Assembly (NCBI GenBank): GCA_034435835.1
Contig: DAOTWF010000017.1
Coordinates: forward strand, 79,617 to 143,616
Length of the DNA stretch: 64,000 nt
Source: Dehalococcoidia bacterium
GTDB taxonomy: Bacteria > Chloroflexota > Dehalococcoidia > GIF9 > UBA5629
Direction of reading: 5' to 3'
Part shown: one piece after another, positions 9,309 through 43,636 of the stretch
Layout of the letters: every line of letters starts with the position of its first letter
Position numbering within the stretch: the stretch's first letter is position 1
Notes under the pieces: generated by a model
The model's input: the letters and a program-made list of their open reading frames with translations, nothing else
Database searches by the model: none
Told to the model about the DNA's origin: nothing
Made by a program: the position numbers and the translations under genes

Positions 9309-12300
9309 TCAAGCTGCGCCCACCCCGGACGGCACCCCTGCCCTGCGGGCACAGAACTTTATCAGCTCGGCGAAGCTGTTTATCTTCGCCAGATTGTTGG
9401 TCTCCGGGAAGCCATCGTAGGTGAGGCTGATCCAGGGCTTGTGGTAGAGCAAACTCAACTTTTCCGCCATCGCTGCCACAATGCCGCCGGGCATGCAGCC
9501 GTGGGGCATCACCGAGATGACGCCGGCGAATTTGGGGTTCTCCAGCCACTCCACACCGCCGCCGATGCTGAGCACCGCCTCGCTGCCACACTTCGGCGAA
9601 AGATAACGGCTGGTAAGTTCTAGTATTTCGGTCACCGCCGGCTCAACGATGTCCAGCACCTCGTGGCAGTGTCGGGCAAGCGAATGCTCGTCGCGCTCCT
9701 GAATGCGCTTCTTAATGTAGCTGACGATGGCTTTGCCCCAATTTCTGTCCATCACAGCGTCCTCCAAGTGGCGGTGGTAGATGTACTTCAACCATTCGCC
9801 CACCGGCGAGACCACCACCTCCAGCCCCGCCGCCTCACAAGCCCCCACCAGGTCGTTGTTGCTGAACCTGTTGGAGCGGAGGTAAATCTCGCCGTTTATA
9901 CCCACCAGCGGCCTTCGCGGCAGCGAGGTGTCGATTACTCCCCTGAATGCGGTAGCCGCTTCTCTAAGCAGGTCACCGAACGGCTCCTTTTTGCGGATGC
10001 GTTCTAAAATACGTGTTTTGTACTCCTCGAATAAACTCTCAGCGGCGCCGCGCTCTTTCTCGTAAGGGCGAGTGCGCCACAGGAGCTTTTCCAGATGGTC
10101 GATGGCGACTATCCCCCGCCACGCCAGCCGCTCGAAGTCACGTCCTAGGTTTATATCACGGTAGGCGTTGTTGGAGACGGTGGTACGGATGGGGAACTCG
10201 AAGCCGAGGTCTTTGAGCGCCCGCATGTGTTCGATGGCATATTTGCCGAAGCGACAGGGACCGTAAGAGCCAGCGGTAAAGCCCTCGTACTCGTCCAGCC
10301 GGTGATGGTTGTCATAGCAAAACTTGAGCAAGTCGCCCAGCGTCACCCTATATGGAAGGCACTCGGTTCCGGAGGTTATCTGGTTTGCCAGCAGGAGGTT
10401 GCGGTCGTCAGGCTCGGGCAGCACCAGTACCCTGGCACCACAGGCCTCCATGGCGGCGGCTATCGCCTCCACGTGGGTACACATGCGGTGGACTACCAGC
10501 GTCTTCTGCTCGGTGCGCACAAAGGGCATGGTGCCCCGGTATATGTCTTTCGGCTCCGACCTCTGCTCCCTGGCAGCTTTGGCATAGCCGGTAATGGTGT
10601 CCACAAAGGCTTCCAGACGGGTGACTATACCCGCCTCGGCGGCGTGCTCGTCTATCTCAAGCTGCCCCAGAGGCTTTCCACCCATGATATCTTCAACAAT
10701 TCTGAGTATGAAGGAGTTGGGACCGCAGCCAAAGTTGGTCACCACCAGACCGAACAGCTGCGGGTCGGACTCCACAATGGCGGCACCAGCGATGTGCCGG
10801 CTCTCCCACGCCCAGTAAGGACGGTCACTGTACTTCCTCACATCAACGGAGTCAAGCGGCAGGAAGTCAAGCGGCACCGGAACCACGCCCAAGTGCGCCA
10901 GTGTCTCAGCGATGCCCAGGTTGGCACCCGAGTCCTGCGACATATATGACCGGGTGAAGATGACCACCCCCAGCCTACCGCTTCTGCGCAGCTCTTCCAG
11001 CAGCCTCTTCCCCAGAGCCGCCTTTTCCGCCTCAAATTGTTGCTGTGCCTCGATGCCAGCAAGCGCTGCCTTCCTCCCGGCGCTGCGGCTGAATCCCATC
11101 CTCACAGCGACATCCGCCAGGCTCTCGATGGTATCATCGTAGCCACGGCTGAAATCGGTGAAGGGGATGAGCAGCCGCTCACCGATGTCAAGCACCTGCC
11201 TGACGATGAATGGCGAAGCCTGCACCAGCGGGCAGGCATATTTCTGGTTCTCAGCCCCCTCTTTCCTGCCCAGGCGGATGGCACAGGGATAGAGGATGAA
11301 GTCCACCTTGTCTTTCAGGCTATCAGCATGTCCGTGTACCAGCTTTAGCGGGAAACAGCTATCGGTATAGCTCAGTTCCACCGACCTCTCGATGATCTCT
11401 TTGTTCGTCTTCGGCGATAGCACCACCCGCACGTTAAGCGCATTGAGGAAACCGAGCAGCAACGGTAGATAGTCATAGACGTAAAGTGCCCTAGGGATGC
11501 CCACCACCGGTCCCCTGCCCTCTCCCTCGCGGTACTCCTTCAGGAGCAGCCGCTCGCGCTCGTCGAAACAGGTGCTTATTCGCTCGCGGCTGATGGCGCT
11601 ATCATAGCGGTCGCAGCGGCTGCCGTAGAAGGTCGGCTTTTCGTTGGGAAGCTGCATCCGGGTGATGGTGCAGTTGTTGTCACAGCCCTTGCAGACGAAG
11701 GTGGAGAAGCTATACTGACCCTCTATCACTCGCTGAAAGCCTTTGAAGCGGGACTTCCCCCCCGCCATCTGTTCCTTAGCCAACAGGGCAGCGCCGATGG
11801 CGCCGCTGACCTCCTTGTGCTCAGCCACTATCAACTGCTTGTCTTTGAGCTGTTCGCAGAAGGCAGCGACCACCGCCTGGTTGTAGAAAACGGCGCCGGT
11901 GAGGATTACCTTGCTGCCCAGCTTCTTGGTGCCCACCACCTTGGAGAGGTAGTTTTTGGCGATGGAGTTAGCCAGACTGGCGGTGATGACCTCCATGGGG
12001 ACGTTGTCCTGCTGTACCGAAGCCACCGCCTGTCCCATGAAGGCAGCGCACCTGGTGCCTAAGTCTATGGTGTACGGTGCAGAAAATGCCAGCCGGGCAA
12101 ACTCGCCGTCCTTCACCGAGACGCCAAGCATCTCGGCAAGCTCGTCTATAAAGCTCCCGGTGCCGGCAGCGCAGGCCTTGTTCATCTCATAGTCCACCAC
12201 AGTGCCATGCCGCTTGAGCACCAGCTTGGAGTCCTGACCGCCGATCTCGATGATATCGGCATCCGGGTCTATCTCCGCCGCTGCCCTCGTCTGGGCGGTT

Positions 12301-13463
12301 ATCTCGTTCTTGATCAGGTCGGCACCGATGAGGCTGCCGATGAGATACCTGCCAGAACCGGTGACGCCTGCGCCGAGCACGGTGACCTTATCGGCGCCCT
12401 TCCTGAGCAGATTGCGGAAGACCTCCTTCACCGCCTCCACGGGCCTGCCTGCGGTCATCAGGTAGTGTTTTGCCAGCACCTGCTTTCCCGTCTCGTCCAG
12501 TATCACCGCCTTGGTGCTGGTGGAGCCCACGTCCACGCCGAGATAGCCGGCGCAGGGGGCGGTGATCACCGGGTCAACAGCGGACTGAACGCCACCCATC
12601 GGTTGGAGCGGCAACAACCTGAAGTAGCGCTGCTCGGCATTGGCAGGCACGGGGGGGACAACTCTGGAGCTCTTTCCCCGGGAGAGCAGGGCGGCGCCGA
12701 CGGCTTCGATGTGCAAGTAGTCCTCAGGGACCTTGATGCTGACCGGGTAGCCGTTCCTCTGGGAGATGAGCTCGTTTAAGGCTTTAATGATGGCAGCATT
12801 GGCGGCGACGCCGCCGACGAAGTAGACGGGCTCGCGGAAGGCTCCCTTCTTCAGCGATACCACCATGCGGGCTATGCTCTCGCACAGAGCATAGAGCATC
12901 GCCTCCACAGGGGCGCCCTTCTGCTGGAGGTGGATGAGGTCGGTCTTGGCGAACACGCTGCACCGGGCGGCGATGCGGGGAGGCGTGTCCTCACAGGCGA
13001 GCGCCAGCTTGGCGAACTCCTCCAAGTTGATACCCAGACGGTAAGCCTGCTGCTCTAAGAATCTACCGGTGCCGGCGGCGCAGAGCGGGTTTGCCGCCAC
13101 CTTCCACGGCTTATTCAGACCGTCCTCAAGCTCGATGACCAGCGCCGTCTGTCCGCCGATCTGGATGATGGTGCTGACGTCGGAATGGCGGTGGAGGAGT
13201 CCGTAGGCGATAGCCAGCGGGCTGGTATACTCCGACCAGTTAAGCTCCTTAGGTATCAGCCCTTTGTTCGAACCGCTGATGCCAGCGGCGGAGATTTCCT
13301 CGAAAGCCACCTTATGACTGAGGCGCCTGAGCAAAGAGCTTATGGCGGCGCCGGGGCTGGAGGTCACCTTCTCTGCATCCAGCCACAGCACCCTGCCCCC
13401 CTCATCGGCGAGCGCCAGCTTGGCGTTCACCGAGCCGATATCAAGTCCTAGAGAGTACGACAT
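9309..13463 (-). CDS. fusion of two BadF/BadG/BcrA/BcrD-type ATPase (2-hydroxyacyl-CoA dehydratase activase) modules with an HgdB/DUF2229-like dehydratase-component region
   Basis: Two ASKHA-type phosphate-1 motifs (LGLDIGSVNAKLAL; YLGVDVGSTSTKAVIL). Two activase cluster-helix regions (CAAGTGRFLE; CAAGTGSFID). Cys motif FVCKGCDNNC. Long C-terminal region of the type seen in about 1400-aa 'CoA-substrate-specific enzyme activase' fusions. Confidence 0.8.
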   Translation of the reverse strand: MSYSLGLDIGSVNAKLALADEGGRVLWLDAEKVTSSPGAAISSLLRRLSHKVAFEEISAAGISGSNKGLIPKELNWSEYTSPLAIAYGLLHRHSDVSTIIQIGGQTALVIELEDGLNKPWKVAANPLCAAGTGRFLEQQAYRLGINLEEFAKLALACEDTPPRIAARCSVFAKTDLIHLQQKGAPVEAMLYALCESIARMVVSLKKGAFREPVYFVGGVAANAAIIKALNELISQRNGYPVSIKVPEDYLHIEAVGAALLSRGKSSRVVPPVPANAEQRYFRLLPLQPMGGVQSAVDPVITAPCAGYLGVDVGSTSTKAVILDETGKQVLAKHYLMTAGRPVEAVKEVFRNLLRKGADKVTVLGAGVTGSGRYLIGSLIGADLIKNEITAQTRAAAEIDPDADIIEIGGQDSKLVLKRHGTVVDYEMNKACAAGTGSFIDELAEMLGVSVKDGEFARLAFSAPYTIDLGTRCAAFMGQAVASVQQDNVPMEVITASLANSIAKNYLSKVVGTKKLGSKVILTGAVFYNQAVVAAFCEQLKDKQLIVAEHKEVSGAIGAALLAKEQMAGGKSRFKGFQRVIEGQYSFSTFVCKGCDNNCTITRMQLPNEKPTFYGSRCDRYDSAISRERISTCFDERERLLLKEYREGEGRGPVVGIPRALYVYDYLPLLLGFLNALNVRVVLSPKTNKEIIERSVELSYTDSCFPLKLVHGHADSLKDKVDFILYPCAIRLGRKEGAENQKYACPLVQASPFIVRQVLDIGERLLIPFTDFSRGYDDTIESLADVAVRMGFSRSAGRKAALAGIEAQQQFEAEKAALGKRLLEELRRSGRLGVVIFTRSYMSQDSGANLGIAETLAHLGVVPVPLDFLPLDSVDVRKYSDRPYWAWESRHIAGAAIVESDPQLFGLVVTNFGCGPNSFILRIVEDIMGGKPLGQLEIDEHAAEAGIVTRLEAFVDTITGYAKAAREQRSEPKDIYRGTMPFVRTEQKTLVVHRMCTHVEAIAAAMEACGARVLVLPEPDDRNLLLANQITSGTECLPYRVTLGDLLKFCYDNHHRLDEYEGFTAGSYGPCRFGKYAIEHMRALKDLGFEFPIRTTVSNNAYRDINLGRDFERLAWRGIVAIDHLEKLLWRTRPYEKERGAAESLFEEYKTRILERIRKKEPFGDLLREAATAFRGVIDTSLPRRPLVGINGEIYLRSNRFSNNDLVGACEAAGLEVVVSPVGEWLKYIYHRHLEDAVMDRNWGKAIVSYIKKRIQERDEHSLARHCHEVLDIVEPAVTEILELTSRYLSPKCGSEAVLSIGGGVEWLENPKFAGVISVMPHGCMPGGIVAAMAEKLSLLYHKPWISLTYDGFPETNNLAKINSFAELIKFCARRAGVPSGVGAA

Positions 13464-13553: not shown

Positions 13554-14342
13554 CTAGTCCTCGCCTAGCAGATGGCTCCTCACCTTGTCATAGCCCGGCG
13601 GGTGCTGGGAGGGGTACCTCATGAAGGAGGGCACAGGGTAACGGAACACGCCAGTCTGGTAGCCAGCCTGCAAGCCCTGGATGGTCTTCTCCACCTTGCT
13701 CATGGGTATGGAGAAGGCGCACTCGTGGTCCTGGGGGTGCCCGATGATCCTCTCCCCGGTACCCACAATGGCGAACTGGGCTTCGTCCGTCTGGATGGTG
13801 CGGGTGATGTAGGTGGTGCATCCCGCCCCAGCTGCCAGCGCCGTCTGGACATTTGGCTTGCCCGTGCCCATCAGGTAGCCGGAGAGCAACACCCATATCT
13901 GTGCCGGGCTGCCGTAGGTGAGGATAAGGTGGGGCTCGAAGTTGCAGCGGTGCAGCGGCGCTATCAGCGCATATTTATATTTGCCGTACTCGAATTTGGG
14001 CAGGTTCTGGATGCTGGCTGCCGCCTGCTCCTTGGTCATCCCCCATAGCCCCAAAGACGCCTGCAGACTGCCATCGGCGACGTCCGGAAGAAGCGGCAGA
14101 AATCCCAGGCTGATGCCGGCGATGTAGCAGCTCTGATACTTGTCCACAGCTATCGTCCAGCCGTACCTCCGCGCCATGGTCACCGCATGGCACAGCGAGA
14201 TGTTAAAGCCCAAGTCCTTCTGTGATGTTCGGGTCTTTTCCGGAAGCTCGCCCTCCGAGGCACACATCCGTATTGCCAGCGGGAAGGTCTGCGGCTTCAG
14301 GTACTGTTCCCACGCCGCCTGCACCTGTTTTGTATCTATCAT
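13554..14342 (-). CDS. DUF169-like protein (COG2043-type), function unknown
   Basis: 262 aa. The pattern PLAIRMC..PE....LCHAVTMARRYGWTIAV....CYIAGISLG resembles DUF169 from memory. Same strand as, and 90 nt upstream of, the activase fusion. Confidence 0.45.
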   Translation of the reverse strand: MIDTKQVQAAWEQYLKPQTFPLAIRMCASEGELPEKTRTSQKDLGFNISLCHAVTMARRYGWTIAVDKYQSCYIAGISLGFLPLLPDVADGSLQASLGLWGMTKEQAAASIQNLPKFEYGKYKYALIAPLHRCNFEPHLILTYGSPAQIWVLLSGYLMGTGKPNVQTALAAGAGCTTYITRTIQTDEAQFAIVGTGERIIGHPQDHECAFSIPMSKVEKTIQGLQAGYQTGVFRYPVPSFMRYPSQHPPGYDKVRSHLLGED

Positions 14343-15246: not shown

Positions 15247-17052
15247 ATGGCTGGCGGTTACATGGGAAAAGTGCTCTGGGTGGAACTCTCCACAGGAAAG
15301 ATGGAAGAGGAGCCACTCGTTGAGAAGATGTGCCACGATTTCCTCGGCGGCTATGGCATCGGCGCCAGGATACTCTACAACCGCATGAAGCCAGGCGTAG
15401 ACCCGCTGGGACCTGAGAACATACTGGGCATGCTCACAGGTCCCCTGACCGGCACCCCGGTGCCCACGGGGGCAAGGTACGCCGTGGTGGCGAAATCGCC
15501 GCTCACCGGGACCTGGGGCGACGCCAACTCCGGTGGTGACTTCGGTCCCTACCTCAAGTTCTCCGGCTACGACGGCATCTTTTTCACCGGCATTTCACCC
15601 AAGCCGGTCTACCTGCTCATCGACAACGGTAAGGCTGAACTCCGGGATGCCAGCCATATCTGGGGGAAGGACACCTACGATACTGAGGACGTTTTACAGG
15701 CAGAGCACGGCATGGACAGCCGTGTCTCCTGTATTGGTCCTACCGGCGAGAAAATGTCGCTTATCTCCTGCATCATCACCCAGCGCGGCTGCGCCGCGGG
15801 ACGTTCCGGGCTGGGGGCGGTGATGGGCTCCAAGAAGCTCAAGGCGGTGGTGGTGAAGGGAAAACACACAGTACCGCTGGCTGATGAAGAAACCCTTGAC
15901 CGACTGCGCAAGCAGTATCTGGCAGCACTCAACGATAAGCAATCGCCGCGGTATGCATTCACTCAGTCATTCCGCAAGTACGGCACCGCCGGTCATGCCG
16001 CCCTTTCAGCACACAATGGCGATACCCCGGTAAAGAACTGGGGCGGAATCGGCGTCATCGACTTCCCCGATGTCTCCGGAATTGAGCCCGAGGCGGTGAT
16101 AGCTAGGCTGGAAAAGCACATCGGCTGCTGGCACTGTCCTATAGCGTGCGAGGGCGCTTTGAAAGAAGGTGCCGGAGAATACTGGTACCCCGCGGGCACC
16201 CGCCGTCCTGAATACGAGACCATCGGTGTCTTCGGCACCATGTGCCTCAACAACCACACCGAGTCCATAGCCCGAGCCAACTACATCTGCAACAGCTATG
16301 GACTGGACACCATCTCCGCCGGCTGCACCATCGCCTTCGCCATCGAATGCTACGAGAACGGCATCATCACCAAGGCGGACACCGAAGGCATCGAACTCAC
16401 CTGGGGCAACCACCGCAGCATCCTGGCTGTGCTGGAGAAAATGGCAAGGAAAGAAGGCTTCGGTGCCGTGCTTGCTGATGGCTCAAAGCTGGCTGCGGAG
16501 AGGATCGGGCGTGGTGCCGACCGGTACGCCATACACATCGGCGGGCAGGAGCTGGGGCTTCATGACCCCAAACTGATGCCGCCGATGGTAGGACATATGG
16601 AGTCAGCGGCAGCGCGCTATCAGATGGACGCCACCCCGGGGCGCCATACACAAGGCTTCGGTCCCAGCGGCTTCCGTAACCACCTCAGCAACGCCACCGG
16701 CGTCTGCTATTTCGGCGGCATCGGTACTGAAATGCTGGCGGACTTCCTTAGCGCCGTGACCGGTTGGGAGTATACTAGAGACGAGCTATTAAAGACCGCT
16801 GAGCGCATCGCCACCTTGAGGCATGTGTTCAACCTCAGGGAAGGAATAAACCCGCTCAAGTGGTATGTACACCCGAGGATAATCGGTAGGCCGCCCCTCA
16901 ACGAGGGTCCCCTGGCAATGGTGACCGCCGACATCGAAGCCCAGGTATACTGGAACCTCGGCGCCCTGGACTGGGATCGCCATACCACCAAGCCAAGCAA
17001 GAGAAAGCTGACGGCGCTTGGCCTTGAGGATGTGATAAAAGACCTGTACTAA
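15247..17052 (+). CDS. aor: aldehyde:ferredoxin oxidoreductase (tungsten/molybdopterin AOR family)
   Basis: N-terminal GKVLWVELSTGK...FLGGYGIGARILY...GPLTG...KSPLTG...NSGG pattern. 601 aa, typical of the AOR family. Confidence 0.9.
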   Translation: MAGGYMGKVLWVELSTGKMEEEPLVEKMCHDFLGGYGIGARILYNRMKPGVDPLGPENILGMLTGPLTGTPVPTGARYAVVAKSPLTGTWGDANSGGDFGPYLKFSGYDGIFFTGISPKPVYLLIDNGKAELRDASHIWGKDTYDTEDVLQAEHGMDSRVSCIGPTGEKMSLISCIITQRGCAAGRSGLGAVMGSKKLKAVVVKGKHTVPLADEETLDRLRKQYLAALNDKQSPRYAFTQSFRKYGTAGHAALSAHNGDTPVKNWGGIGVIDFPDVSGIEPEAVIARLEKHIGCWHCPIACEGALKEGAGEYWYPAGTRRPEYETIGVFGTMCLNNHTESIARANYICNSYGLDTISAGCTIAFAIECYENGIITKADTEGIELTWGNHRSILAVLEKMARKEGFGAVLADGSKLAAERIGRGADRYAIHIGGQELGLHDPKLMPPMVGHMESAAARYQMDATPGRHTQGFGPSGFRNHLSNATGVCYFGGIGTEMLADFLSAVTGWEYTRDELLKTAERIATLRHVFNLREGINPLKWYVHPRIIGRPPLNEGPLAMVTADIEAQVYWNLGALDWDRHTTKPSKRKLTALGLEDVIKDLY

Positions 17053-17351
17053 TGGCTATGGGCGGAGCTGTATTCAACTGCACCATTGAGCTCTACGGCA
17101 TACCCAAGCAGATAACCACCGAGCGCAGGGTGGAGGTGGAACTCGAGGACGGGGTGGGACTTGCCGGGGTGATCGCCGCACTTCGCCGCAAAATCCCGGC
17201 GCTCGATGGCACGGTATTCCACCGCGGCGAGGACAGGCTTTCCGAGTTCTATGCCTTCAACATCAACGGGCGCTTCTATATAGACGACAAGGGTATCAGA
17301 GTCCACAAAGGGGACCGCATCGCCCTGCTCTCCCTCGCCGCCGGCGGTTGA
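17052..17351 (+). CDS. MoaD/ThiS-like ubiquitin-fold sulfur-carrier protein (C-terminal Gly-Gly)
   Basis: 99 aa ending ...LLSLAAGG-stop. Its ATG overlaps the aor stop (TAATG), which implies translational coupling. Confidence 0.6.
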   Translation: MAMGGAVFNCTIELYGIPKQITTERRVEVELEDGVGLAGVIAALRRKIPALDGTVFHRGEDRLSEFYAFNINGRFYIDDKGIRVHKGDRIALLSLAAGG

Positions 17352-17607
17352 ACTCACACCATTGCTCGAAACTATAGAGGACATCCGGGGTACGTGCTCT
17401 TTGATGGTTGCCGTAACGGTATAGCGCTACGGACTCACCACTCCCGGGCGCTCAAGAAAGGGCTCAGTCCCACCGAGTCTTCTGCAAACCAGAAGACAGC
17501 CACAGTCGTAGAGTCAAACACATTTAATAAATGCGGCGCCAGAGCCACATTTGCCTAGGAGCCGGTGCCCAGCCGGGGAAACCTGACTGTCTGATAGCAG
17601 ACTCTAT

Positions 17608-36266: not shown

Positions 36267-37133
36267 TCAGTTTTTCGCCGCCGGAAGGGGCGGGCGGACA
36301 AGCAGCACGGGCTTCGTGGAGCCTTCGACCACCCTGGAGGCGACGCTGCCATATGCCCACTTGCTGACGCCGGAAAAACCGTGAGTGGTCAGGGCGATCA
36401 GGTCAACATCGCTTTCGCTGGCATACTGCAGTATGGTGTCAGCAGGCTTCCCCTGCAGGAGTCTGGTGGTTACCTTCAGCCTCTTCTCCTCCAGAAGTGC
36501 CTTCCGTCGGCTCAGATAGCGTTCAGCCTCCCTCTGCAGCTTATCTGTTAGGTCTTTTTCCACCTTCGTCCAGTCCTCATACACAGCTAGCTGGGGCACC
36601 TTCACTGGCTCAGCGACCTGAAGCAGCACGACCTCGCCAGCCATGGCTCTGGCAAACGCCTCCACGTGGGGAAGGATGGCTTCGGCGAACTGGGAACCGT
36701 CCAGCGTAGCCAGTATTCTTGCCAGCTTCACCGCTGCCTCAGCCCGTTCACTGGAGCGCACCAGAAAGACGGGTATGTGCGACCTCTGTACCACCTTAGT
36801 GGCGATGCTGCCTAGCGCCCAGCGGCTTAGCCCACCCTTGCCATGGGTGGAGATTGCGATGAGGTCAACTTTGCTTTCCGCAGCAAAGTTCAGTATGGAA
36901 TTAGCCGGTTCTCCCTCAATGCACAGAGCCCGCACCTTGACTTTCGAGACCTTGAAGGCTTCAGCCTTTTTCTCCAGATATTCCACCAGCACATGTTTCA
37001 GCGGGTCTCCCGGCGGGCAAACGGTGAGCAGGACAACTTTGCTGTCAAAGCCCCGGGCAATCTTCAACACATAGGGTAAAGCCTGTTCAGCCAGCTCCGA
37101 GCCATCTAGCGGGACAAGCAGCGTGTGATACAT
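36267..37133 (-). CDS. universal stress protein, tandem UspA domains
   Basis: Two repeats of the pattern LVPLDGS...A...DLI...THG..G...GSV...V. Start set to the ATG at 37133, preceded by GGAGGTG. Confidence 0.8.
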   Translation of the reverse strand: MYHTLLVPLDGSELAEQALPYVLKIARGFDSKVVLLTVCPPGDPLKHVLVEYLEKKAEAFKVSKVKVRALCIEGEPANSILNFAAESKVDLIAISTHGKGGLSRWALGSIATKVVQRSHIPVFLVRSSERAEAAVKLARILATLDGSQFAEAILPHVEAFARAMAGEVVLLQVAEPVKVPQLAVYEDWTKVEKDLTDKLQREAERYLSRRKALLEEKRLKVTTRLLQGKPADTILQYASESDVDLIALTTHGFSGVSKWAYGSVASRVVEGSTKPVLLVRPPLPAAKN

Positions 37134-37237
37134 CTCCACACCTCCTGCGTTTTCCAGCACCTTGCCTTCAGGGAACTGGTCTATCCACAGCTATATTAGC
37201 CGTTCCGTGAACTCCTGGCAAGTCCCCTGGGAAACCA

Positions 37238-38530
37238 TTAATGTCTTGCAGCCGCAAAGCCCGTCTTGCCCTGCTGGGCAGGGGGCTTGAGCAGCAGAAC
37301 CACGATGGCGGCCGTCATCATCGTGGCAGCGAAGGTGAGGAATGCGGTTATGTAGCTACCGGTGATATCAAACAGCCAGCCGGCAAAGTAGGGTCCGGCG
37401 AAGGAGCCGAACACTGCAAAGGCATTTATGTAGCCCATGATGGCACCGAAGGCTTTATAGCCGAAAAACTGCACCCGGAGCATCGGTTCCAGGGGCAGGC
37501 GCAGCCCCATGCCGGTGCCATATACGATGACGAATACCCAAATCCAAGCCATGTCGGTCGCCCTGGCGAGGAAGAAAAGTCCTAGGGCTTGCATCAGGCT
37601 GGAGACAAAGTATAGACGTCTGATATCCCACTTATCGGCAAGCCAGCCGCCGGAAATCCTCCCCGGGACGCTTATGAGGGTCATCATACCCAGCGCCGTG
37701 GCTGCCAGCACTTTGGAGATGCCCATATCTTCCACAAACGGTATCTGGTGCACCACGATGGCGCTGAGTGCAGTATGGGAGAAGGTGAAAGCCAGCACCA
37801 TCAGCCAGAAAGCCCGCGTCTTCATAGCCTCCTTCAGAGTCAGACCTTCACCAACATCAACATGCGGTCTCTTGCTATCGCTGTGGGATGGCGTTGCCAC
37901 GGCAGGCTGCCGCTCTTTGCCATCAGGGGCAAGCCCGTACCGCTCCGGTCCATGGGGCTTGAGCACAGCACCAAGCCCCAGTCCCAGTACGACGGTAGCC
38001 ACCGCCAGCACCAGCACCGACACCCGCCAGCCGTATTGAGTGATCAGCCAGGCAACAGCGGGCACGATCGCCGAGCCACCAAGCGCTGCCCCAGCCGTCA
38101 GGATCCCCATCGCCAGCCCTCTTTTCTCGTTAAACCACCTGGCAACAGCGGTCTGGAGTGGTAAGTACAGCCCTGTGCCCATGCCTAGGGAGACAAGTAC
38201 CGTGTAGCTTAAGATGAACATCCAGAAGCTGTGCATGTAGTACATAAGGGCAAACCCGATGGCTGCCATCATCCAGCCGGCGATGACCATGGCACGCGGA
38301 CCGTATCTATCGGTGAGGGGACCAGTTATTAGCCCCTGGACACCGCCCTCAAGGCGCGATAAAGAGAAGGCGATTGAAGTGGTCGCGCGCGACCAGCCGA
38401 ACTCGTGAGAGATAGGGTTGAAAAGGGCGCCATAAGAGTAAAAGTAGCCGCCGTAGCCGAACATGCACAGCACCGACCCGGCAGCAACGATCCACCAGCC
38501 ATAGAACACTTTGCCCGCTTTTCTGAGCAT
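37238..38530 (-). CDS. MFS transporter (oxalate/formate-antiporter-like)
   Basis: About 12 TM segments with a central hydrophilic loop. Start set to the ATG at 38530 (GGAG 11 nt upstream); the track begins at a GTG at 38545, inside the U-tract of the upstream hairpin. Confidence 0.75.
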   Translation of the reverse strand: MLRKAGKVFYGWWIVAAGSVLCMFGYGGYFYSYGALFNPISHEFGWSRATTSIAFSLSRLEGGVQGLITGPLTDRYGPRAMVIAGWMMAAIGFALMYYMHSFWMFILSYTVLVSLGMGTGLYLPLQTAVARWFNEKRGLAMGILTAGAALGGSAIVPAVAWLITQYGWRVSVLVLAVATVVLGLGLGAVLKPHGPERYGLAPDGKERQPAVATPSHSDSKRPHVDVGEGLTLKEAMKTRAFWLMVLAFTFSHTALSAIVVHQIPFVEDMGISKVLAATALGMMTLISVPGRISGGWLADKWDIRRLYFVSSLMQALGLFFLARATDMAWIWVFVIVYGTGMGLRLPLEPMLRVQFFGYKAFGAIMGYINAFAVFGSFAGPYFAGWLFDITGSYITAFLTFAATMMTAAIVVLLLKPPAQQGKTGFAAARH

Positions 38531-38540
38531 CCCCGGTCTC

Positions 38541-38575
38541 CGCACAAAAACAAAAAGGCGATTTCCTCGCCTCTC
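38541..38575 (-). terminator. intrinsic-terminator-like hairpin + U-tract immediately upstream of the MFS RBS (terminator of the sulfur operon and/or attenuator)
   Basis: The minus strand reads GAGAGGCGA-GGAAA-TCGCCTTTTTGTTTTTGTG, followed by CGGAGACCGGGGATG (RBS + start). Confidence 0.55.
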
Positions 38576-38708
38576 CTCTCCCTGCCAGAACAGTGCCGGT
38601 TTACCTTACCGGAACTTCAATACCCCACGTCCCACCCGCCGTACAGCAATGAAGCAGTTTAACACAAAAAACCGCGGGCTTTCAATTTTTGTAGGCTATC
38701 TGCGAAGG

Positions 38709-39977
38709 TCACACCAGAGCCTTCACAGCAAGCTCGGAAAGGCTAGTGACCTCGATGTCGAGCCCGTAGTGTTCGTTGAGTTCACCGATCTGATGGCGAC
38801 AGTTATCACACGAGGTGACCACGATCCTGGCGCCGGTGCTGTGGACCTGCTCCGCCTTCAGCTTACCTGCCCTGAGACGGATGTCAGTCCATTCAGGTAT
38901 AGCCACCAGTCCGCTGCCGGCACCGCAGCAAAAGCTGTAGATCCGGTTGGGGTTCATCTCACGGTAGTCCTCAGCCACAGCGCGGATTATCCGCCGCGGC
39001 TCTTCAAACAGCCCGCCCTTGCGCCCCAGATTGCAGGAATCATGATAGGTCACTGGGACACCGTTCCTTTTAGGAGTTAAGGTGAGAACACCTTTCTGCA
39101 AGTACTCGTCCAGCACCTCTATTATGCTGCGCACACGGAAAGGCAGCCGCCGCCCCAGCCACCGCGCCACCTCCCACCGCATTACAGGATAGCCATGCCC
39201 GCACTCCGTAATGACCACCTCCTCAACCTTCAGGCGCTCCGCCTCAGCGATGATGCGTTGTGCGATGCGACTGGCCCTCGATGTATCAGCCAGAAAGTAA
39301 GCGTAGTTCGAGGTCTCGAACAGGCTGAGAGCCCAGGACTCCTTTGCCAGGTTGAACAGGACTGCCTGCGGCACGATGGTATGTGCCCCGGAAAGGGGAA
39401 CATAGAGCACCCGGACACCTTCCTTCCCCACCGGTATGGTGGCGCTGGAACTACCCAGATGGTCCTGCACCTGCTTTTCCAGCTCTTTCACCTGGTCGAG
39501 GTAGAACTCTTTGAAAAACTCGATGTTCTCCCCCTTGGCAATGGCGGCATCCGCCAGTTCCACGAGCATCTGCGGTGCCCCGCCGCTGGCGGTAGCCAGT
39601 GCCCTGACTGCCCGCATAATGTCCGCGGTGTCCACACTGAGGGGACAGTCAAGGGTGCACCTCTGACACAGCGTACAGGTGGAAAAGGCTATATCGGCAA
39701 GTCGGCGTAGCAATTCCGCAGACACTTCGCCGGAGTCACGGCGCCGGAAGCGACCCGCCGAAGGGTCAAGGAGCCGCCGGTATATCCTGCGCAATTGCTC
39801 GGCGCGGTAGAAGGGGGTATGCTCCAGTTTCGGCTCGGACCGGTAATAGTGACAGCTCTCGGCGCAGATACCACAGCGGACACATGCCTCTAGAGAGGCA
39901 AGCTGCTTGCGGTCAATCAGGACCTCCAACTTCCGTTTCACATCAGCAAGGGATAGGGAGGTGGCTTCGGCACTCAT
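38709..39977 (-). CDS. HdrD/DsrK/GlpC-type iron-sulfur protein (2x[4Fe-4S] ferredoxin domain + CCG domain)
   Basis: CVRCGICAESC and CTLCQRCTLDCP motifs. A degenerate first CCG-like region (ITECGHG). A complete CCG signature: HDSC...SFCCGAGSG...TSCDNC. ATGA overlap with the upstream membrane gene. Confidence 0.75.
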   Translation of the reverse strand: MSAEATSLSLADVKRKLEVLIDRKQLASLEACVRCGICAESCHYYRSEPKLEHTPFYRAEQLRRIYRRLLDPSAGRFRRRDSGEVSAELLRRLADIAFSTCTLCQRCTLDCPLSVDTADIMRAVRALATASGGAPQMLVELADAAIAKGENIEFFKEFYLDQVKELEKQVQDHLGSSSATIPVGKEGVRVLYVPLSGAHTIVPQAVLFNLAKESWALSLFETSNYAYFLADTSRASRIAQRIIAEAERLKVEEVVITECGHGYPVMRWEVARWLGRRLPFRVRSIIEVLDEYLQKGVLTLTPKRNGVPVTYHDSCNLGRKGGLFEEPRRIIRAVAEDYREMNPNRIYSFCCGAGSGLVAIPEWTDIRLRAGKLKAEQVHSTGARIVVTSCDNCRHQIGELNEHYGLDIEVTSLSELAVKALV

Positions 39978-40588
39978 CGCAGAATGCCCCTGTGACCAGA
40001 TATCCAGCCAAAGAAGCCTCGTGAATAGAAGAAGTAGAGGAAATGACGCAATTTGCCGAACGGCGTGTAGGCGAGCGTTATAGCTGAGACCACCCAGAAC
40101 AGCGGCAGGAACTGCGCATCGGCGGCACAGAGGCTTGCCGAGATGAGGAATACCGTGACTAAAGTCAGCGAGAAATAGTCATCGGCGGTGCTCACCGCCC
40201 TCAATATAGGGTCACGAGACCGCAACCAGAAACCCGTTAAGGCGGCAACGGCAGCTATGGCGAAAAGAACCGATGCTGTAAGCCGCACTGCCGAAGGCAG
40301 AAAGGTCAGCCACGGGGTGGAGATGAGAAAAGCCGTGCCCAGAAAGATACCGCCATGAAAGACCACCCCGCGGAGGTAAGCGACCCAGTGCAGCCGTGCG
40401 CTCTCCTTCTCCCAAGGCAACATACCCAGGGTAAAGGCATGTAGCACCCCTTTTGCCGCTGAACCTCTGGCGGAAGCCACATCGCCACGAAACTGCCACC
40501 GCTGCATACGGGCAATATGCCAGCCCAGTCCCGCAGCACAGATAACTGCACCAAGACACAGCGCCACAAAGGCGATGAGTACGCTCAC
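39974..40588 (-). CDS. 5-TM membrane protein, NarI/DsrM/HdrE-like putative cytochrome b subunit
   Basis: 204 aa with five hydrophobic helices. His residues lie in or near helices 1, 2 and after helix 5. The C-terminal PFGKLRHFLYFF resembles the NarI-family motif. The GTG start overlaps the tusA stop (GTGA). Confidence 0.5.
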   Translation of the reverse strand: MSVLIAFVALCLGAVICAAGLGWHIARMQRWQFRGDVASARGSAAKGVLHAFTLGMLPWEKESARLHWVAYLRGVVFHGGIFLGTAFLISTPWLTFLPSAVRLTASVLFAIAAVAALTGFWLRSRDPILRAVSTADDYFSLTLVTVFLISASLCAADAQFLPLFWVVSAITLAYTPFGKLRHFLYFFYSRGFFGWISGHRGILR

Positions 40589-40827
40589 TTCGCTTTCCTG
40601 ATGGTGAAGGTGATGAGCTTATCCTTTTTCTCCATGGAGAGGAGTTCGTTCCCGGTGCTCTTCACCCAGGCTGGGATATCGGCGAGCACGCCCGGGTCTG
40701 TTGCCGTAGCCTCCAGGATTCCACCCGCAGGCAGATCCTTTATCGCTTGGCTGACCCTGACCACCGGTATAGGGCAGAGCAAACCCTCAAGGTTGAGCTT
40801 CACACTGGCACCTGTTTCCTGCGTCAT
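40585..40827 (-). CDS. tusA: TusA/SirA-family sulfurtransferase
   Basis: LNLEGLLCPIPVVRVSQAIKDL..GGILEATATDPGVLADIPAW (conserved Cys-Pro motif). Start set to the ATG at 40827, preceded by GAGGAGGTG; the track ORF extends upstream. Confidence 0.8.
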   Translation of the reverse strand: MTQETGASVKLNLEGLLCPIPVVRVSQAIKDLPAGGILEATATDPGVLADIPAWVKSTGNELLSMEKKDKLITFTIRKAK

Positions 40828-40840
40828 TTTGTCACCTCCT

Positions 40841-41317
40841 CTAAATGAACAACGTGGCAAAGGAGCGTCCCGCCGCTTCCAGCATTGTCGCCACCCCCGC
40901 CGGCTCCGCCACCTCGTCGATGAGGTCCTCACGCTTTATCTCCATGACCTCCATGCTCATCTGGCAGGGCACCAGTTTGACCCCGAGGTCCACAGCCATC
41001 TTACGAAGTTCCCCCAGCGGCGTGATGTTATGCGCCTTCATCATCTGCTTGAACATCCACCTACCGATGCCACCGAAGTTGAACCGGGAAGGACCGATGC
41101 GGTTGATGCCACCCCGGTTAAGCAGCCCCATCATCCGCCCGAAGACGCTCTTACCGGTAAGGTTGCCCTTCTGTATGGCTTTTATCCCCCAGAAGGTGAA
41201 GAACATGGTGGTCTCCTTACCCGAGGCAGCAGCACCAACGGCAATGTTGAACGCCGCCATCACCTTGTCCATATCACCGCTGAACACCACTATGGTCACC
41301 CCTTCTCTGTCTGACAT
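40841..41317 (-). CDS. DsrE/DsrF/DrsH-like (DrsE_2-type) sulfur-relay protein
   Basis: VTIVVFSGDMDKVMAAFNIAVGAAASGKETTMFFTFWG...LVPCQMSMEVMEIKREDLID...ATLFI. Start at the ATG at 41317, preceded by AAGGAGGG. Confidence 0.7.
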   Translation of the reverse strand: MSDREGVTIVVFSGDMDKVMAAFNIAVGAAASGKETTMFFTFWGIKAIQKGNLTGKSVFGRMMGLLNRGGINRIGPSRFNFGGIGRWMFKQMMKAHNITPLGELRKMAVDLGVKLVPCQMSMEVMEIKREDLIDEVAEPAGVATMLEAAGRSFATLFI

Positions 41318-41336
41318 TTTCACCCTCCTTGTCAAT

Positions 41337-41687
41337 TTATCCTGTCAGCCTTTCCGCCAAGCGCCTGTTCTTTTCCATCTGGTTCAATAATATCTGATGC
41401 ACAACGTCGCAGGCTTCGCCTATCTTGCTATCGGTCAGGCTATAGTACACATTCACCCCCTCCCGTCTTGCCTGCACCACACCACGGTCACGAAGCACTG
41501 CCAGATGCCGTGATACCACCGCCTGCGGCACTTGAAGAAGCTGCACAAGCTCGCTTACCGCCCTCTCACCACCACGCAGGATGTCAATTATCTGCAGCCT
41601 CTTGGCATCGGCAAAAGTCTTGCACAGCTCCGCCTTAAGCTCGTATAGCTCCAGATCCCGTCGCTCTCTCAAATAACTTCTCCTCAT
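41337..41687 (-). CDS. ArsR/SmtB-family transcriptional regulator (two Cys: C22, C93)
   Basis: wHTH signature FADAKRLQIIDILRGGERAVSELVQLLQVPQAVVSRHLAVLRDRGVV..RREG..VYYSL. Confidence 0.85.
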   Translation of the reverse strand: MRRSYLRERRDLELYELKAELCKTFADAKRLQIIDILRGGERAVSELVQLLQVPQAVVSRHLAVLRDRGVVQARREGVNVYYSLTDSKIGEACDVVHQILLNQMEKNRRLAERLTG

Positions 41688-41696
41688 CTTTTTAAC

Positions 41697-41708
41697 TATA
41701 TCGATATA
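41697..41708. promoter_or_regulatory. perfect 12-bp palindrome TATATCGATATA, candidate ArsR operator
   Basis: Lies 10 nt upstream of the arsR start codon, in a strongly AT-rich divergent intergenic region (41688-41837). An AATATT palindrome follows at about 41713. Confidence 0.4.
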
Positions 41709-41837
41709 TTAAAATATTATCATATGATTGCATTTGTTGTCAAACCGTGTTTCTGATAGGTTGTGAATAGTGGAGGTAATAGGGCTTGACAAGCTGTATT
41801 ATAATATGTTTAGCTTTGGAGAAAGGAGGTGACTCAA

Positions 41838-41981
41838 ATGGCGCAGGCGTATTGCTTCAAGTGTCGCAAGAAGGTGGAGGTCAGGAATCCCGCCAATGTG
41901 ACGCTGAAAAACAAGCGTCCAGCGATCCGGGGGACTTGCCCGAACTGCGGAACCAAGGTATTCCGCATCGGTAAGAGCTAA
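41838..41981 (+). CDS. small zinc-ribbon protein (DUF5679-like), 47 aa; absent from the supplied ORF track
   Basis: AAAGGAGGTG RBS 7 nt before the ATG. Translation: MAQAYCFKCRKKVEVRNPANVTLKNKRPAIRGTCPNCGTKVFRIGKS, with CxxC...CxxC and a C-terminal FRIGK. Confidence 0.6.
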   Translation: MAQAYCFKCRKKVEVRNPANVTLKNKRPAIRGTCPNCGTKVFRIGKS

Positions 41982-42671: not shown

Positions 42672-42736
42672 CTTTCAAAGATATCACAAACCACAAATCG
42701 AGACAAGGTGGTAAAATATACAAAAGGATGGTAGCT

Positions 42737-43636
42737 ATGGCAGAAGCAAGATTGCAGCAGATTCTGGTGCCCCTCGATGGCTCACTCGAGGCGGAGTGTG
42801 TGCTCCCCTACCTCCGGGACCTGGCGCCTAGGTTTAATGCCAAGGTGCATGTCCTTGCCGTGGGTGTAGGACAGAGGACAAGGAGGGTAAATCGCCTGCT
42901 GGAAGACTATATCGTCAAGATGACTGAAGAGCTCAAACAGCAGGATATTAACGCCGAGGCGTCGGTCGTTTACGGGACCACTGCCGATATGATACTGGAG
43001 TTCGCCCAGCACCAGAAGGTCGACCTCATCCTTATGGCAACCCATGGCTTGAGCGGGGTGACGCGCTGGTGGCTGGGAAGCGTTGCCGAAAAGGTGGTCA
43101 GCGCCTCCCCCACCCCCATAATGCTGGTCCAGGCAACACGATCCGAAAAACATGACACGACAAGTAAAAAGAGCATCGAAAGAATCCTCGTCCCGCTGGA
43201 CGGTTCCGAGTTAGGGCAGGCGGCTCTGCCCTATGCCGAAATGCTCACCTTCAAGACAGGGGCTGCTCTTGACCTGCTGCATGTGGTGGCACCCCCGGGA
43301 GCCATAGAAGCCAGCCTGCTCACCGGACCCGACTGGGTAAAACTGATCCAGGTGCTGCAGGAAGCTGGCGAGGATTACCTTAAGGAAATGGTGAGGCAAC
43401 TGGGTGAGCGTGGCATAAAAGCCACCTACGAAGTGGTAACTGGTGAGCCTGCCGACAAAATAGTACAATATGCAGAGACAAAAAGGGTCAGCCTGATAGC
43501 AATGTCAACCCACGGTCGGACAGGGCTAGCCCGCTGGGTGATGGGGAGCGTTGCCGACAAGGTAGTGCACAGCGCCAGCATGCCCGTCTGGCTGGTGAGG
43601 TCAGCTAAAATACTAGCTCCCAAAGCGAAGCCCTGA
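42737..43636 (+). CDS. universal stress protein, tandem UspA domains
   Basis: Two repeats ILVPLDGS...DLI.M.THG..G......GSVA.KV. Start set to the ATG at 42737, because the AAAGG motif directly abuts the track start at 42728. Confidence 0.8.
   Translation: MAEARLQQILVPLDGSLEAECVLPYLRDLAPRFNAKVHVLAVGVGQRTRRVNRLLEDYIVKMTEELKQQDINAEASVVYGTTADMILEFAQHQKVDLILMATHGLSGVTRWWLGSVAEKVVSASPTPIMLVQATRSEKHDTTSKKSIERILVPLDGSELGQAALPYAEMLTFKTGAALDLLHVVAPPGAIEASLLTGPDWVKLIQVLQEAGEDYLKEMVRQLGERGIKATYEVVTGEPADKIVQYAETKRVSLIAMSTHGRTGLARWVMGSVADKVVHSASMPVWLVRSAKILAPKAKP

Follow-up and report, generated by a model that had tools for sequence, protein, structure and literature searches.

Described relatives and the conserved core

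DsrMK is the core of DsrMK(JOP), the menaquinol:DsrC-trisulfide oxidoreductase of sulfate and sulfite reducers. The DsrK-type chemistry, which uses a relay cysteine and a non-cubane cluster, has so far been tied to DsrC and to dissimilatory sulfite reduction. The cryo-electron microscopy structure of DsrMKJOP from Archaeoglobus fulgidus (A. fulgidus) features a DsrK that has one non-cubane cluster, in which the distal ligands have been lost except for the strictly conserved Cys329. Cys329 was seen persulfidated and was proposed as the residue that carries sulfur over from DsrC to the cluster, the single-cluster relatives of DsrK keep His331, and Asp500 replaces the supernumerary Cys234 of Hdr (preprint 10.64898/2026.08.25.746951). 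A relative of DsrMK is encoded on contig DAOTWF010000017.1 of a Dehalococcoidia bacterium, in a stretch of 64 kb that is referred to here as a whole as the window. Positions 38709-41708 of the window hold five co-directional genes, all on the minus strand, for an ArsR/SmtB-family repressor, a DsrE2-type protein, TusA, a membrane anchor and a CCG iron-sulfur protein. The last four are read here as a quinone-linked enzyme that would take sulfane sulfur from TusA/DsrE2 and reduce it to sulfide, a reading whose chances we judge to be about even.

The window module resembles DsrMK in combining a NarI-type heme anchor with a cytoplasmic protein that has two [4Fe-4S] motifs and a single complete CCG motif. 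Both also feature a non-ligating cysteine with a histidine two residues on (C259/H261, corresponding to Cys329/His331 of A. fulgidus DsrK) and the PFxKLxH motif in the anchor, and a protein-bound sulfur substrate is probably shared. However, the window module is encoded with TusA and DsrE2 instead of DsrC and is found in organisms without Dsr. Its proteins score below the NCBI DsrK and DsrM cut-offs and belong to a separate clade. The anchor is short (204 aa), has no PF02665 match and keeps three of the four heme histidines, and the position of DsrK Asp500 is apparently occupied by Cys393, as judged from an indirect mapping. A version of this chemistry that works with TusA/DsrE2 would extend it beyond its present setting.

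In the cytoplasmic sHdr system, DsrE2-TusA pairs are known partners of CCG-cluster enzymes (PMC11094781, PMC4175335). DsrE2 proteins are defined in the literature by their linkage to Dsr or Hdr systems, and no reaction was seen between an archaeal DsrE2B and any sulfur compound that was tried (PMC4175335, PMC11094781). The window operon likewise has TusA and a DsrE2-type protein beside a CCG-cluster enzyme, with carrier-bound sulfur as the presumed substrate (PMC11094781, PMC4175335). However, sHdr, which in sulfur oxidisers comes with a sulfur-transferase cascade of DsrE2, DsrE3 and TusA, is a soluble HdrAB1B2C1C2 complex with lipoate-binding proteins, whereas the window module is without HdrA, HdrB and LbpA, and its CCG enzyme, of the DsrK type, is attached to a cytochrome b in the membrane. 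HdrDE, the methanophenazine:CoM-S-S-CoB oxidoreductase of Methanosarcina, pairs a membrane b-type cytochrome with a fused HdrC/HdrB-like subunit that cleaves a heterodisulfide, and a TusA-DsrE2 heterodisulfide would be the protein analogue of CoM-S-S-CoB. HdrD and HdrB feature two non-cubane clusters, whereas the first CCG domain of the window protein keeps only C259, and the substrates of the window enzyme would be proteins, not coenzymes.

All parts of the module come from known families, and both DsrMK with DsrC and DsrE2-TusA with sHdr are already known; the combination is defined by conserved synteny and clade-specific residues. No description of a DsrE/TusA-linked membrane module of the HdrD/DsrK type was found in the searchable literature. 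Public annotations give the core genes generic names, either '(Fe-S)-binding protein' or 'hypothetical protein', or call them 'nitrate reductase gamma subunit', which is mistaken.

A scan that took a single genome for each GTDB species gave 155 loci, of which 80 were kept, and all five window proteins were compared against these. The 41 non-redundant loci with a CCG protein of at least 48% identity to the window protein make up clade A, and clade B, the nearest sister clade, consists of 36 loci at 35-46% identity. In 39 of the 41 clade A loci the membrane gene is directly preceded, on the same strand and in an unchanged order, by genes for a DrsE_2 protein and TusA, and in 30 of the 41 an ArsR gene lies upstream of this pair. 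Neither a DrsE_2 gene nor tusA is upstream in any of the 36 clade B loci. In the clade A exception L019 the contig ends at the membrane gene. An earlier reading made from the letters alone (the sequence-only reading) had proposed the gene order as a check, and the order holds outside this genome and in several phyla. Clade A members come from Dehalococcoidia, Anaerolineae, Ca. Aquidulcis and metagenome-assembled genomes labelled Bacteroidota, Armatimonadota and Deltaproteobacteria. Species-level genomes that carry the module number at least 41 and come from several phyla, and organisms without a dissimilatory sulfur pathway are among its hosts. The cultivated Thermoflexus hugenholtzii carries the full five-gene order, and Ca. 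Kryptonium thompsonii has the four core genes in the same order with a MerR-family gene in place of arsR. The membrane protein has 295 relatives in a large protein collection, nearly all from uncultured Chloroflexota and none with a precomputed Pfam domain.

The divergence of the four core proteins is correlated (rho 0.78-0.92). No further gene is consistently linked in clade A, where Usp genes occur at 10 of 41 loci and a small zinc-ribbon gene at 5 of 41, and SQR, persulfide dioxygenase, YeeE and rhodanese genes were sought as conserved neighbours without being found. The conserved order, the correlated divergence and the lack of another linked gene identify the conserved unit as the four-gene core, with an exchangeable regulator, and this core is one evolutionary unit. 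The four junctions of the window operon are, in gene order, a gap of 19 nt that carries AAGGAGGG, one of 13 nt that carries GAGGAGGTG, a GTGA overlap of the tusA stop with the anchor gene, and an ATGA overlap of the anchor gene with the start of the CCG gene. Translational coupling is seen in the core genes. The Usp neighbours hint at a stress context and prove nothing. A gene for a Zn_ribbon_8 protein of about 61 aa directly follows the CCG gene at L001 and L004. At L084 (CAVSBU010000017.1) the regulator, membrane and CCG genes are each split into several reading frames, either as a decaying copy or through long-read frameshift errors.

In the clade B pairs and in HmcEF and TmcBC of Desulfovibrio, both subunits belong to the same superfamily as those of the window. 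A small DsrE-like gene is present in clade B as well, where it follows the CCG gene at 20 of 36 loci, but the clade is distinguished by a fixed cluster with MopB-FeS-NrfD genes, a protein of about 700 aa and a DsrN-like amidase, and a TusA/DsrE2-type gene is never upstream. In Anaerolineae the order of this cluster is MopB-like protein, 4Fe-4S protein, NrfD, an open reading frame of about 60 aa, the protein of about 700 aa, anchor and CCG protein, followed by a 129-aa DsrE-like protein, a ferredoxin, a DsrN-like amidase, HemA and a radical SAM gene. It was seen at L077:27-12463, L002, L038, L068 and about 30 other loci, and these include Ca. Desulfolinea nitratireducens. The protein of about 700 aa, which has no Pfam or NCBIfam match, is found in 32 of 36 loci and the amidase in 26 of 36, and the 129-aa DsrE-like protein has two conserved cysteines.

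The iron-sulfur protein and the sulfur carriers

The Pfam search of the CCG protein identified one CCG stretch only (3.5e-13) together with Fer4_8. NCBIfam models gave 232 bits for TmcB, 228 bits for DsrK and 211 bits for HmcF, all below cut-off; the cut-off of the DsrK equivalog NF045796 is 400 bits, and the Kryptonium orthologue scores 303 bits. Two GlpC models gave 47 and 33 bits (cut-offs ~278-280), GlcF gave 19 bits (cut-off 333), and LutA is a partial fold match only. A GlpC/LutA-type subunit had been named beforehand as the outcome that would count against the proposal, and the protein is not of that type (211-232 bits for DsrK/HmcF/TmcB versus at most 47 bits). The AlphaFold2 (AF2) model has a pLDDT of 89.2, and in Foldseek it matched the whole soluble part of EtfD (E 3e-12, TMq 0.69), followed by LutA and HdrB. 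The HdrB match is weak, with E 1.7e-3 by sequence and 1e-6 to 9e-5 by fold, and the two complete CCG motifs of HdrD/HdrB are not present. Of the earlier label 'HdrD/DsrK-type', the DsrK-like part therefore stands on the one CCG cluster and the HdrD-like part, for which two are needed, falls away; the curated DsrK, HmcF and TmcB cut-offs are all missed.

Fourteen cysteines of the protein are invariant in clades A and B. It features two ferredoxin-type motifs, C32/35/38/42 and C101/104/107/111, and one complete CCG motif, C315/350/351/390/393, which is the arrangement of DsrK, and the lone non-ligating C259 is located in a degenerate first CCG-like domain. The segment E258-C259-G260-H261, which is invariant in both clades, supplies the Cys-x-His of DsrK. 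ECGH is found in 41 superfamily representatives, of which two pass NCBI's DsrK cut-off (P0286 with 413 bits and P0289 with 451 bits). In the alignment with EtfD, C259 falls on C581, a ligand of the cluster that matches the Hdr distal cluster, and H261 falls on H583. The correspondence of C259/H261 to Cys329/His331, together with the single CCG motif, argues that the window protein has a DsrK-type catalytic site. H261 was also considered as the mark of a non-catalytic cluster, as in EtfD, and this was rejected because the same histidine is found in DsrK-grade proteins and in A. fulgidus DsrK.

HdrB C234 aligns with C393, so a cysteine is apparently kept at the DsrK Asp500 position, although this mapping is indirect and depends on transitive alignment. 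The proteins that pass NCBI's DsrK cut-off also have a cysteine there, and P0344, the one representative that has an aspartate, scores 332 bits, below the cut-off. P0289 is encoded behind DsrM-like and enoyl-CoA hydratase genes on a short contig (L095:2-2942). This context and its cysteine suggest that the curated DsrK model may also capture DsrMK-like pairs that do not belong to Dsr.

A neighbour-joining tree of 160 sequences, calculated without support values, features clade A as monophyletic with two metagenomic sequences as its sisters. Clade B is next out, together with HmcF-leaning sequences, and the DsrK-grade sequences are further away. Judged by this tree, the CCG protein falls on an unnamed branch within the DsrK/HmcF/TmcB superfamily, and this branch is monophyletic. 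The residues that differ between clades A and B adjoin the cluster ligands (193-203, S314, 357-358, 391 and 394), and the motifs differ as HDSC vs HDPC, GLVA vs GMLS, and C(D/E)NCR vs CHNCLD. Ligands that are kept beside adjoining residues that differ are expected if the redox site is retained and the partner is different. The view that clade B is the 'true DsrMK' of Chloroflexota was tried and rejected, since its CCG proteins also fail the DsrK, HmcF and TmcB cut-offs.

The Pfam check of the carriers and the regulator confirmed DrsE_2, TusA and HTH_5. The DsrE2-type protein belongs to DrsE_2 (PF13686, 7e-44, 150 bits) and scores 71 bits against the NCBIfam DsrE2 equivalog NF047629, where the cut-off is 210 and the Kryptonium orthologue reaches 92 bits. 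Its closest solved relatives are the Sulfolobus DsrE2B SSO1126 (2QS7, 3.7e-18) and 3PNX, and DsrE3A is far more distant. Its one cysteine, Cys118 in LVPCQMSM, is invariant in 35 of 35 orthologues. Apart from the active-site region, the most conserved stretch is an inserted loop, GPSRFNFGGIGRWMFKQMMK, which is a candidate docking surface on account of this conservation. If the proposed function is correct, it would give the DsrE2 family, so far without a settled biochemical role, a defined and testable job.

TusA belongs to its family by Pfam (PF01206, 7e-20, 71 bits against a cut-off of 28.6) and reaches 44 bits of the 78 set for the NCBIfam TusA equivalog. Its solved relatives are Ta1170 and E. 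coli TusA. All 39 of 39 orthologues keep its sole cysteine, C18 in CPIP. The protein also matches YedF, a TusA relative of selenium metabolism (6e-10), which together with the frequent sensing of metalloids by ArsR and MerR regulators is what could be said for a module that handles selenium (or tellurium) as a membrane-coupled carrier system for selenide or perselenide. We give this reading hardly any credence, given that the match to TusA is better than that to YedF, that no selD, yedE or selenoprotein gene is linked, and that every one of the DsrE2 and DsrK relatives is associated with sulfur.

Another reading keeps sulfur and takes the complex for an ordinary DsrMK acting on a DsrC encoded elsewhere, with TusA/DsrE2 merely feeding DsrC as TusA/DsrEFH do in sulfur oxidisers. 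A TusA to DsrE to DsrC relay is established elsewhere, DsrK is among the best NCBIfam matches (228 bits, and 303 bits for Kryptonium), and the C-x-H catalytic pair is common to DsrK. However, the DsrK cut-off of 400 is not reached, clade A is a separate monophyletic branch that is further from the DsrK-grade sequences than from clade B, and the DsrE protein here is DsrE2-type, not DsrEFH. The gene survey of the 64-kb window found no dsrAB, dsrC, sox, sqr or hdrABC, in agreement with the sequence-only reading. The genome paper of Thermoflexus reports menaquinone but neither dissimilatory nor assimilatory sulfate reduction, nor Sox (PMC8129789). Thermoflexus has the module and reportedly no dissimilatory sulfate/sulfite reduction pathway, which indicates that the module is independent of Dsr and does not serve DsrC, and a DsrC-dependent enzyme is distinctly improbable.

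The idea of a DsrMK/HdrED-type membrane module with TusA/DsrE as carrier stands as the best reading; the families, folds, residue conservation and gene order are what we infer its complex formation, activity, substrate, direction and signal from. The operon would encode a self-contained, repressor-controlled, quinone-linked sulfur redox module, in which TusA (Cys18) and the DsrE2-type protein (Cys118) serve as cytoplasmic carriers of sulfane sulfur and take the part that DsrC has in DsrMK. The 422-aa CCG protein would be the catalytic subunit, with the relay C259 and H261 beside a non-cubane cluster, and the 204-aa protein would be the heme-b anchor that links the clusters to menaquinone/menaquinol. 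A TusA persulfide, passed through DsrE2 or held together with it, may be handed to C259. The non-cubane cluster would then reduce the sulfur with electrons that menaquinol supplies by way of the heme anchor and both cubane clusters, whereupon sulfide is set free and the carriers return to their starting state. The carriers have one cysteine each, against two on the one arm of DsrC, so that a TusA-S(-S)-S-DsrE2 bridge could, as a speculation, correspond in two-protein form to the DsrC trisulfide or to CoM-S-S-CoB. The module may be an unrecognised enzyme class, a reductase (or oxidase) that is linked to quinone and acts on sulfur shared by the separate carriers TusA and DsrE2, and this we put forward tentatively and with more doubt than conviction.

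Since the module is present in heterotrophs without a dissimilatory sulfur pathway, disposal or turnover of sulfane sulfur is likelier as its role than main respiration. Repressor control, the frequent Usp neighbours and the heterotrophic hosts point to a conditional turnover of reactive sulfane sulfur. If this is true, DsrK-type sulfur chemistry would be at work in ordinary heterotrophs (Thermoflexus, Kryptonia, Dehalococcoidia) for a general handling of sulfane sulfur coupled to the membrane, and a membrane/quinone link would be added to the cytoplasmic networks of sulfur carriers.

The membrane anchor and the direction of electron flow

The 204-aa protein had been described as NarI/DsrM-like, and this relationship is supported even though the proposed match to PF02665 did not appear: the Pfam search of the protein gave no match at all. 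NCBIfam matches are below cut-off, with TmcC at 2.4e-9 and 37 bits (cut-off 240) and HmcE at 5e-9 and 36 bits (cut-off 275), and the DsrM cut-off is also not reached. A profile search of the sequences in the Protein Data Bank found nothing even at E 10, and an hhalign comparison with NarI from Escherichia coli (E. coli) was not significant (E 0.26). The AF2 model (pLDDT 87.7, pTM 0.82) has NarI chain C as its top eight Foldseek matches, with a probability of 1.0, TM 0.43-0.55 and E of only ~0.02, and the EtfD membrane domain is next (TMq 0.56). When a profile of the anchor family was compared by hhalign with a PF02665-positive DsrM-type protein whose gene directly precedes that of a DsrK-grade protein, the result was E 9e-5, and DDYFSL and PF(G/S)KL(R/I)H line up. 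The heme-ligand motif PFxKLxH of NarI/DsrM is present in the anchor as PFGKLRH (H182), and its histidine is H205 in the E. coli NarI sequence. As modelled, the anchor has the NarI fold.

Natural single-chain fusions of 661-670 aa join a PF02665 NarI-like domain to a DsrK-type CCG protein. One of these is a 661-aa protein encoded at L094:5001-6986 (P0271) and another is P0276; the CCG part is 39% identical to the window CCG protein. The fusion P0271 and EtfD are examples of this CCG family at work with an anchor of the NarI type. At L094 the gene after the fusion encodes a small protein that gives a faint MtrC/MtrF-like match, and nearby lies a gene for an aldehyde:ferredoxin oxidoreductase.

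The axial histidines of NarI/DsrM are expected as a pair about 10 residues apart in helix 2 and a pair 18 residues apart in helix 5, for two hemes. They are H56, H66, H187 and H205 in E. coli NarI, H82, H92, H197 and H215 in the DsrM-like protein of L095, and H71, H81, H193/194 and H211 in the fusion of L094. The corresponding residues of the window anchor are H67 and H78 in helix 2 and F164 and H182 in helix 5. Across 77 sequences H67, H78 and H182 do not vary, and a histidine is never seen at the fourth position. By their charge distribution, the loops 29-67 and 126-134 as well as the C-terminus are cytoplasmic, which fits an N-out, C-in topology. This topology and the histidine inventory predict one complete bis-His site on the cytoplasmic side and a second site without a histidine ligand. 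With F164 in place of the fourth histidine, a two-heme transmembrane wire is not established. If the anchor binds one heme, quinone turnover would occur on the cytoplasmic side and there would be no charge separation.

Mycobacterial EtfD (9ojn) is the best overall match of the CCG protein and also matches the anchor. It features a one-heme version of the NarI-like fold, with the heme near the cytoplasm and a menaquinone site beside it, and an aligned C-x-H. However, EtfD is one fused chain of 1042 aa, its linear [3Fe-4S] cluster depends on further ligands that are absent in the window protein, and its electrons come from ETF instead of sulfur carriers. The CCG protein and anchor could be a general module of this type for the entry or exit of electrons at the quinone pool, with a non-catalytic cluster and with TusA/DsrE2 as accessories such as sulfur donors for cluster building or repair. 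EtfD is the best structural match of both subunits outside NarI, and H583, with which H261 aligns, is regarded by the EtfD authors as making the cluster non-catalytic. The same histidine and cysteine are present in the catalytic DsrK, where the cysteine is a sulfur relay, and the other three ligands of the linear [3Fe-4S] cluster are missing. Furthermore, no gene for ETF or another donor is linked, and two dedicated, stoichiometrically coupled carriers with invariant active-site cysteines are hard to explain as maturation factors. An electron module of this kind is improbable, and even when it is pooled with the DsrC-dependent and selenium readings, the three are together unlikely to account for the operon.

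The main rival to the reductive reading is the same complex run in reverse, as a carrier-thiol (or sulfide):menaquinone oxidoreductase that forms an S-S bond and sends the electrons to the quinone pool. Sulfane sulfur would be loaded onto TusA/DsrE2, or a TusA-DsrE2 hetero-di/trisulfide would be formed, which would make the complex a protein-based counterpart of SQR or of the DsrMK(J) that works oxidatively in sulfur oxidisers. Judged by midpoint potentials, thermodynamics favour the flow from thiol or sulfide to menaquinone: sulfane sulfur lies at about -270 mV and menaquinol at about -74 mV, so that the reduction is uphill under standard conditions. The anchor with its one complete bis-His site also resembles the single-heme EtfD, which feeds menaquinone from a heme on the cytoplasmic side. 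In cable bacteria, DsrMK(J) has been proposed to form the DsrC trisulfide with reduction of quinone (PMC13293266). Thermoflexus is without assimilatory sulfate reduction, so the capture of sulfide as carrier-bound sulfur could be useful to it. On the other side, no conserved downstream consumer of an oxidised carrier is encoded nearby, so a module running in this direction would not be self-contained, and the closest characterised site, Cys329/His331 of DsrK, has been described for the release of sulfide by reduction. We regard the reversed complex as rather unlikely, while taking it seriously.

Several observations weigh against the reductive, carrier-linked enzyme, beginning with the uphill potential and with the anchor, which keeps three of the four NarI/DsrM heme histidines and in its one bis-His site resembles a protein that reduces menaquinone. 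The regulator gives no clear pointer to a sulfur signal. In addition, L001/L011 (CP070642.1, the chromosome of Chloroflexota bin905) is the only complete clade A locus without an adjacent DsrE2-TusA pair. Unrelated XRE-type helix-turn-helix genes and an M78 peptidase gene are upstream there, which suggests an insertion or a replacement, and an ArsR gene is located 6 kb away beside SBF and DsbD-like genes.

Regulator, operator and surroundings

The five open reading frames described in the sequence-only reading are all present as co-directional minus-strand genes (Table 1), and the junctions match the values that it gave. The motifs LVPCQMSM, GLLCPIPV, PFGKLRHFLYFF, two CxxCxxCxxxC and HDSC...FCCGAG...SCDNC were also found as it described them, as were the regulator cysteines at positions 22 and 93.

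Table 1. Features of the operon and, below them, of its surroundings in the 64-kb window
Feature	Position	Strand	Details
ArsR/SmtB-family repressor	41337..41687	-	116 aa from ATG; Cys22, Cys93
DsrE2-type carrier (Pfam DrsE_2)	40841..41317	-	158 aa from ATG; single Cys118
TusA	40585..40827	-	80 aa from ATG; Cys18 in CPxP
NarI/DsrM-type membrane anchor	39974..40588	-	204 aa, GTG start, five helices
CCG iron-sulfur protein, DsrK-type, predicted cytoplasmic	38709..39977	-	422 aa
Predicted operon promoter	41714..41743	-	-35 TTGACA, 18-nt spacer, extended -10 TGaTAATAT; consensus scan
Putative operator	41697..41708	.	perfect palindrome TATATCGATATA inside longer imperfect repeat TTTTAA-...-GTTAAAA
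Usp gene, tandem-domain	36267-37160	-	flanks the operon
Usp gene, tandem-domain	42728-43636	+	flanks the operon
DUF5679 zinc-ribbon gene	41829-41981	+	50 aa; divergent, upstream of the operon promoter
Promoter-like site	38656-38685	-	between CCG stop and hairpin
Terminator-like hairpin with T-run	38552-38576	-	133 nt past CCG stop
MFS gene	37238-38545		just past the hairpin
BcrAD/BadFG protein gene	9309-13463	-	1384 aa; two BcrAD/BadFG ATPase domains and DUF2229

The regulator belongs to the ArsR/SmtB family, with 50 bits for Pfam PF01022 (HTH_5, cut-off 22) and 82 bits for NCBIfam NF033788 (cut-off 55). A persulfide sensor with two cysteines, as in BigR/SqrR, had been suggested for it. Its closest solved structure is indeed SqrR (E 4e-13), but in the alignment the sensing cysteine of SqrR falls on D35 and not on C22, and the second SqrR cysteine lies beyond C93. 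C22 is kept in 26 of 30 orthologues and C93 in 17 of 30, with Leu or Ile replacing it in an Anaerolineae-type branch. The BigR equivalog score is 58 bits against a cut-off of 155, and in Ca. Kryptonium the regulator is of the MerR family instead. The mismatched and poorly kept cysteines do not support a two-cysteine switch of the BigR/SqrR type. A related ArsR goes by the NCBIfam name 'TsoR', and searching under that name turned up nothing relevant.

Two start codons are candidates for the regulator, an ATG at 41687 without a Shine-Dalgarno sequence and a TTG at 41672 behind a well-spaced AGGAGA. The NCBI annotation of the identical contig CAZQND010000002.1 (252 kb) uses the TTG, five codons later, which yields a 111-aa regulator whose cysteines are numbered 17 and 88.

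The operon promoter is the best sigma-70-like site of the region, with 10-11 of 12 consensus matches, and is directly upstream of the palindrome. TTGACA and a -10 box are found at the equivalent place in most orthologous loci. The palindrome is located between the -10 box and the start codon of the regulator; it is perfect, as the earlier reading had it, and its distance from the ATG is 9 nt instead of the 10 nt given there. Perfect 12-nt palindromes occur 19 times in the window versus 16.8 in shuffles, so this one is not significant by statistics alone. It is deemed relevant because it is just downstream of the promoter and because an inverted repeat of the ATATA..TATAT type is at the same position, between the -10 box and the start codon, in most of 29 orthologous promoters. 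This conserved repeat supports autoregulated repression at the transcription start. ArsR, or the MerR-type regulator in other lineages, would repress at the AT-rich palindrome over the transcription start until its signal arrives.

The divergent zinc-ribbon gene is kept in the close relative L005, and synteny of the MFS, Usp and P-type ATPase genes is limited to the close relatives L005 and L006. The other genes of the window have housekeeping and fermentative functions. DUF169 and nitroreductase genes are beside the gene for the 1384-aa BcrAD/BadFG protein, and the window also has an aldehyde:ferredoxin oxidoreductase gene followed by a ThiS-like gene; 13554-14342 (-) and 15247-17352 (+) are the further coordinates of this group. 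These genes are typical of anaerobe metabolism and unrelated to the operon.

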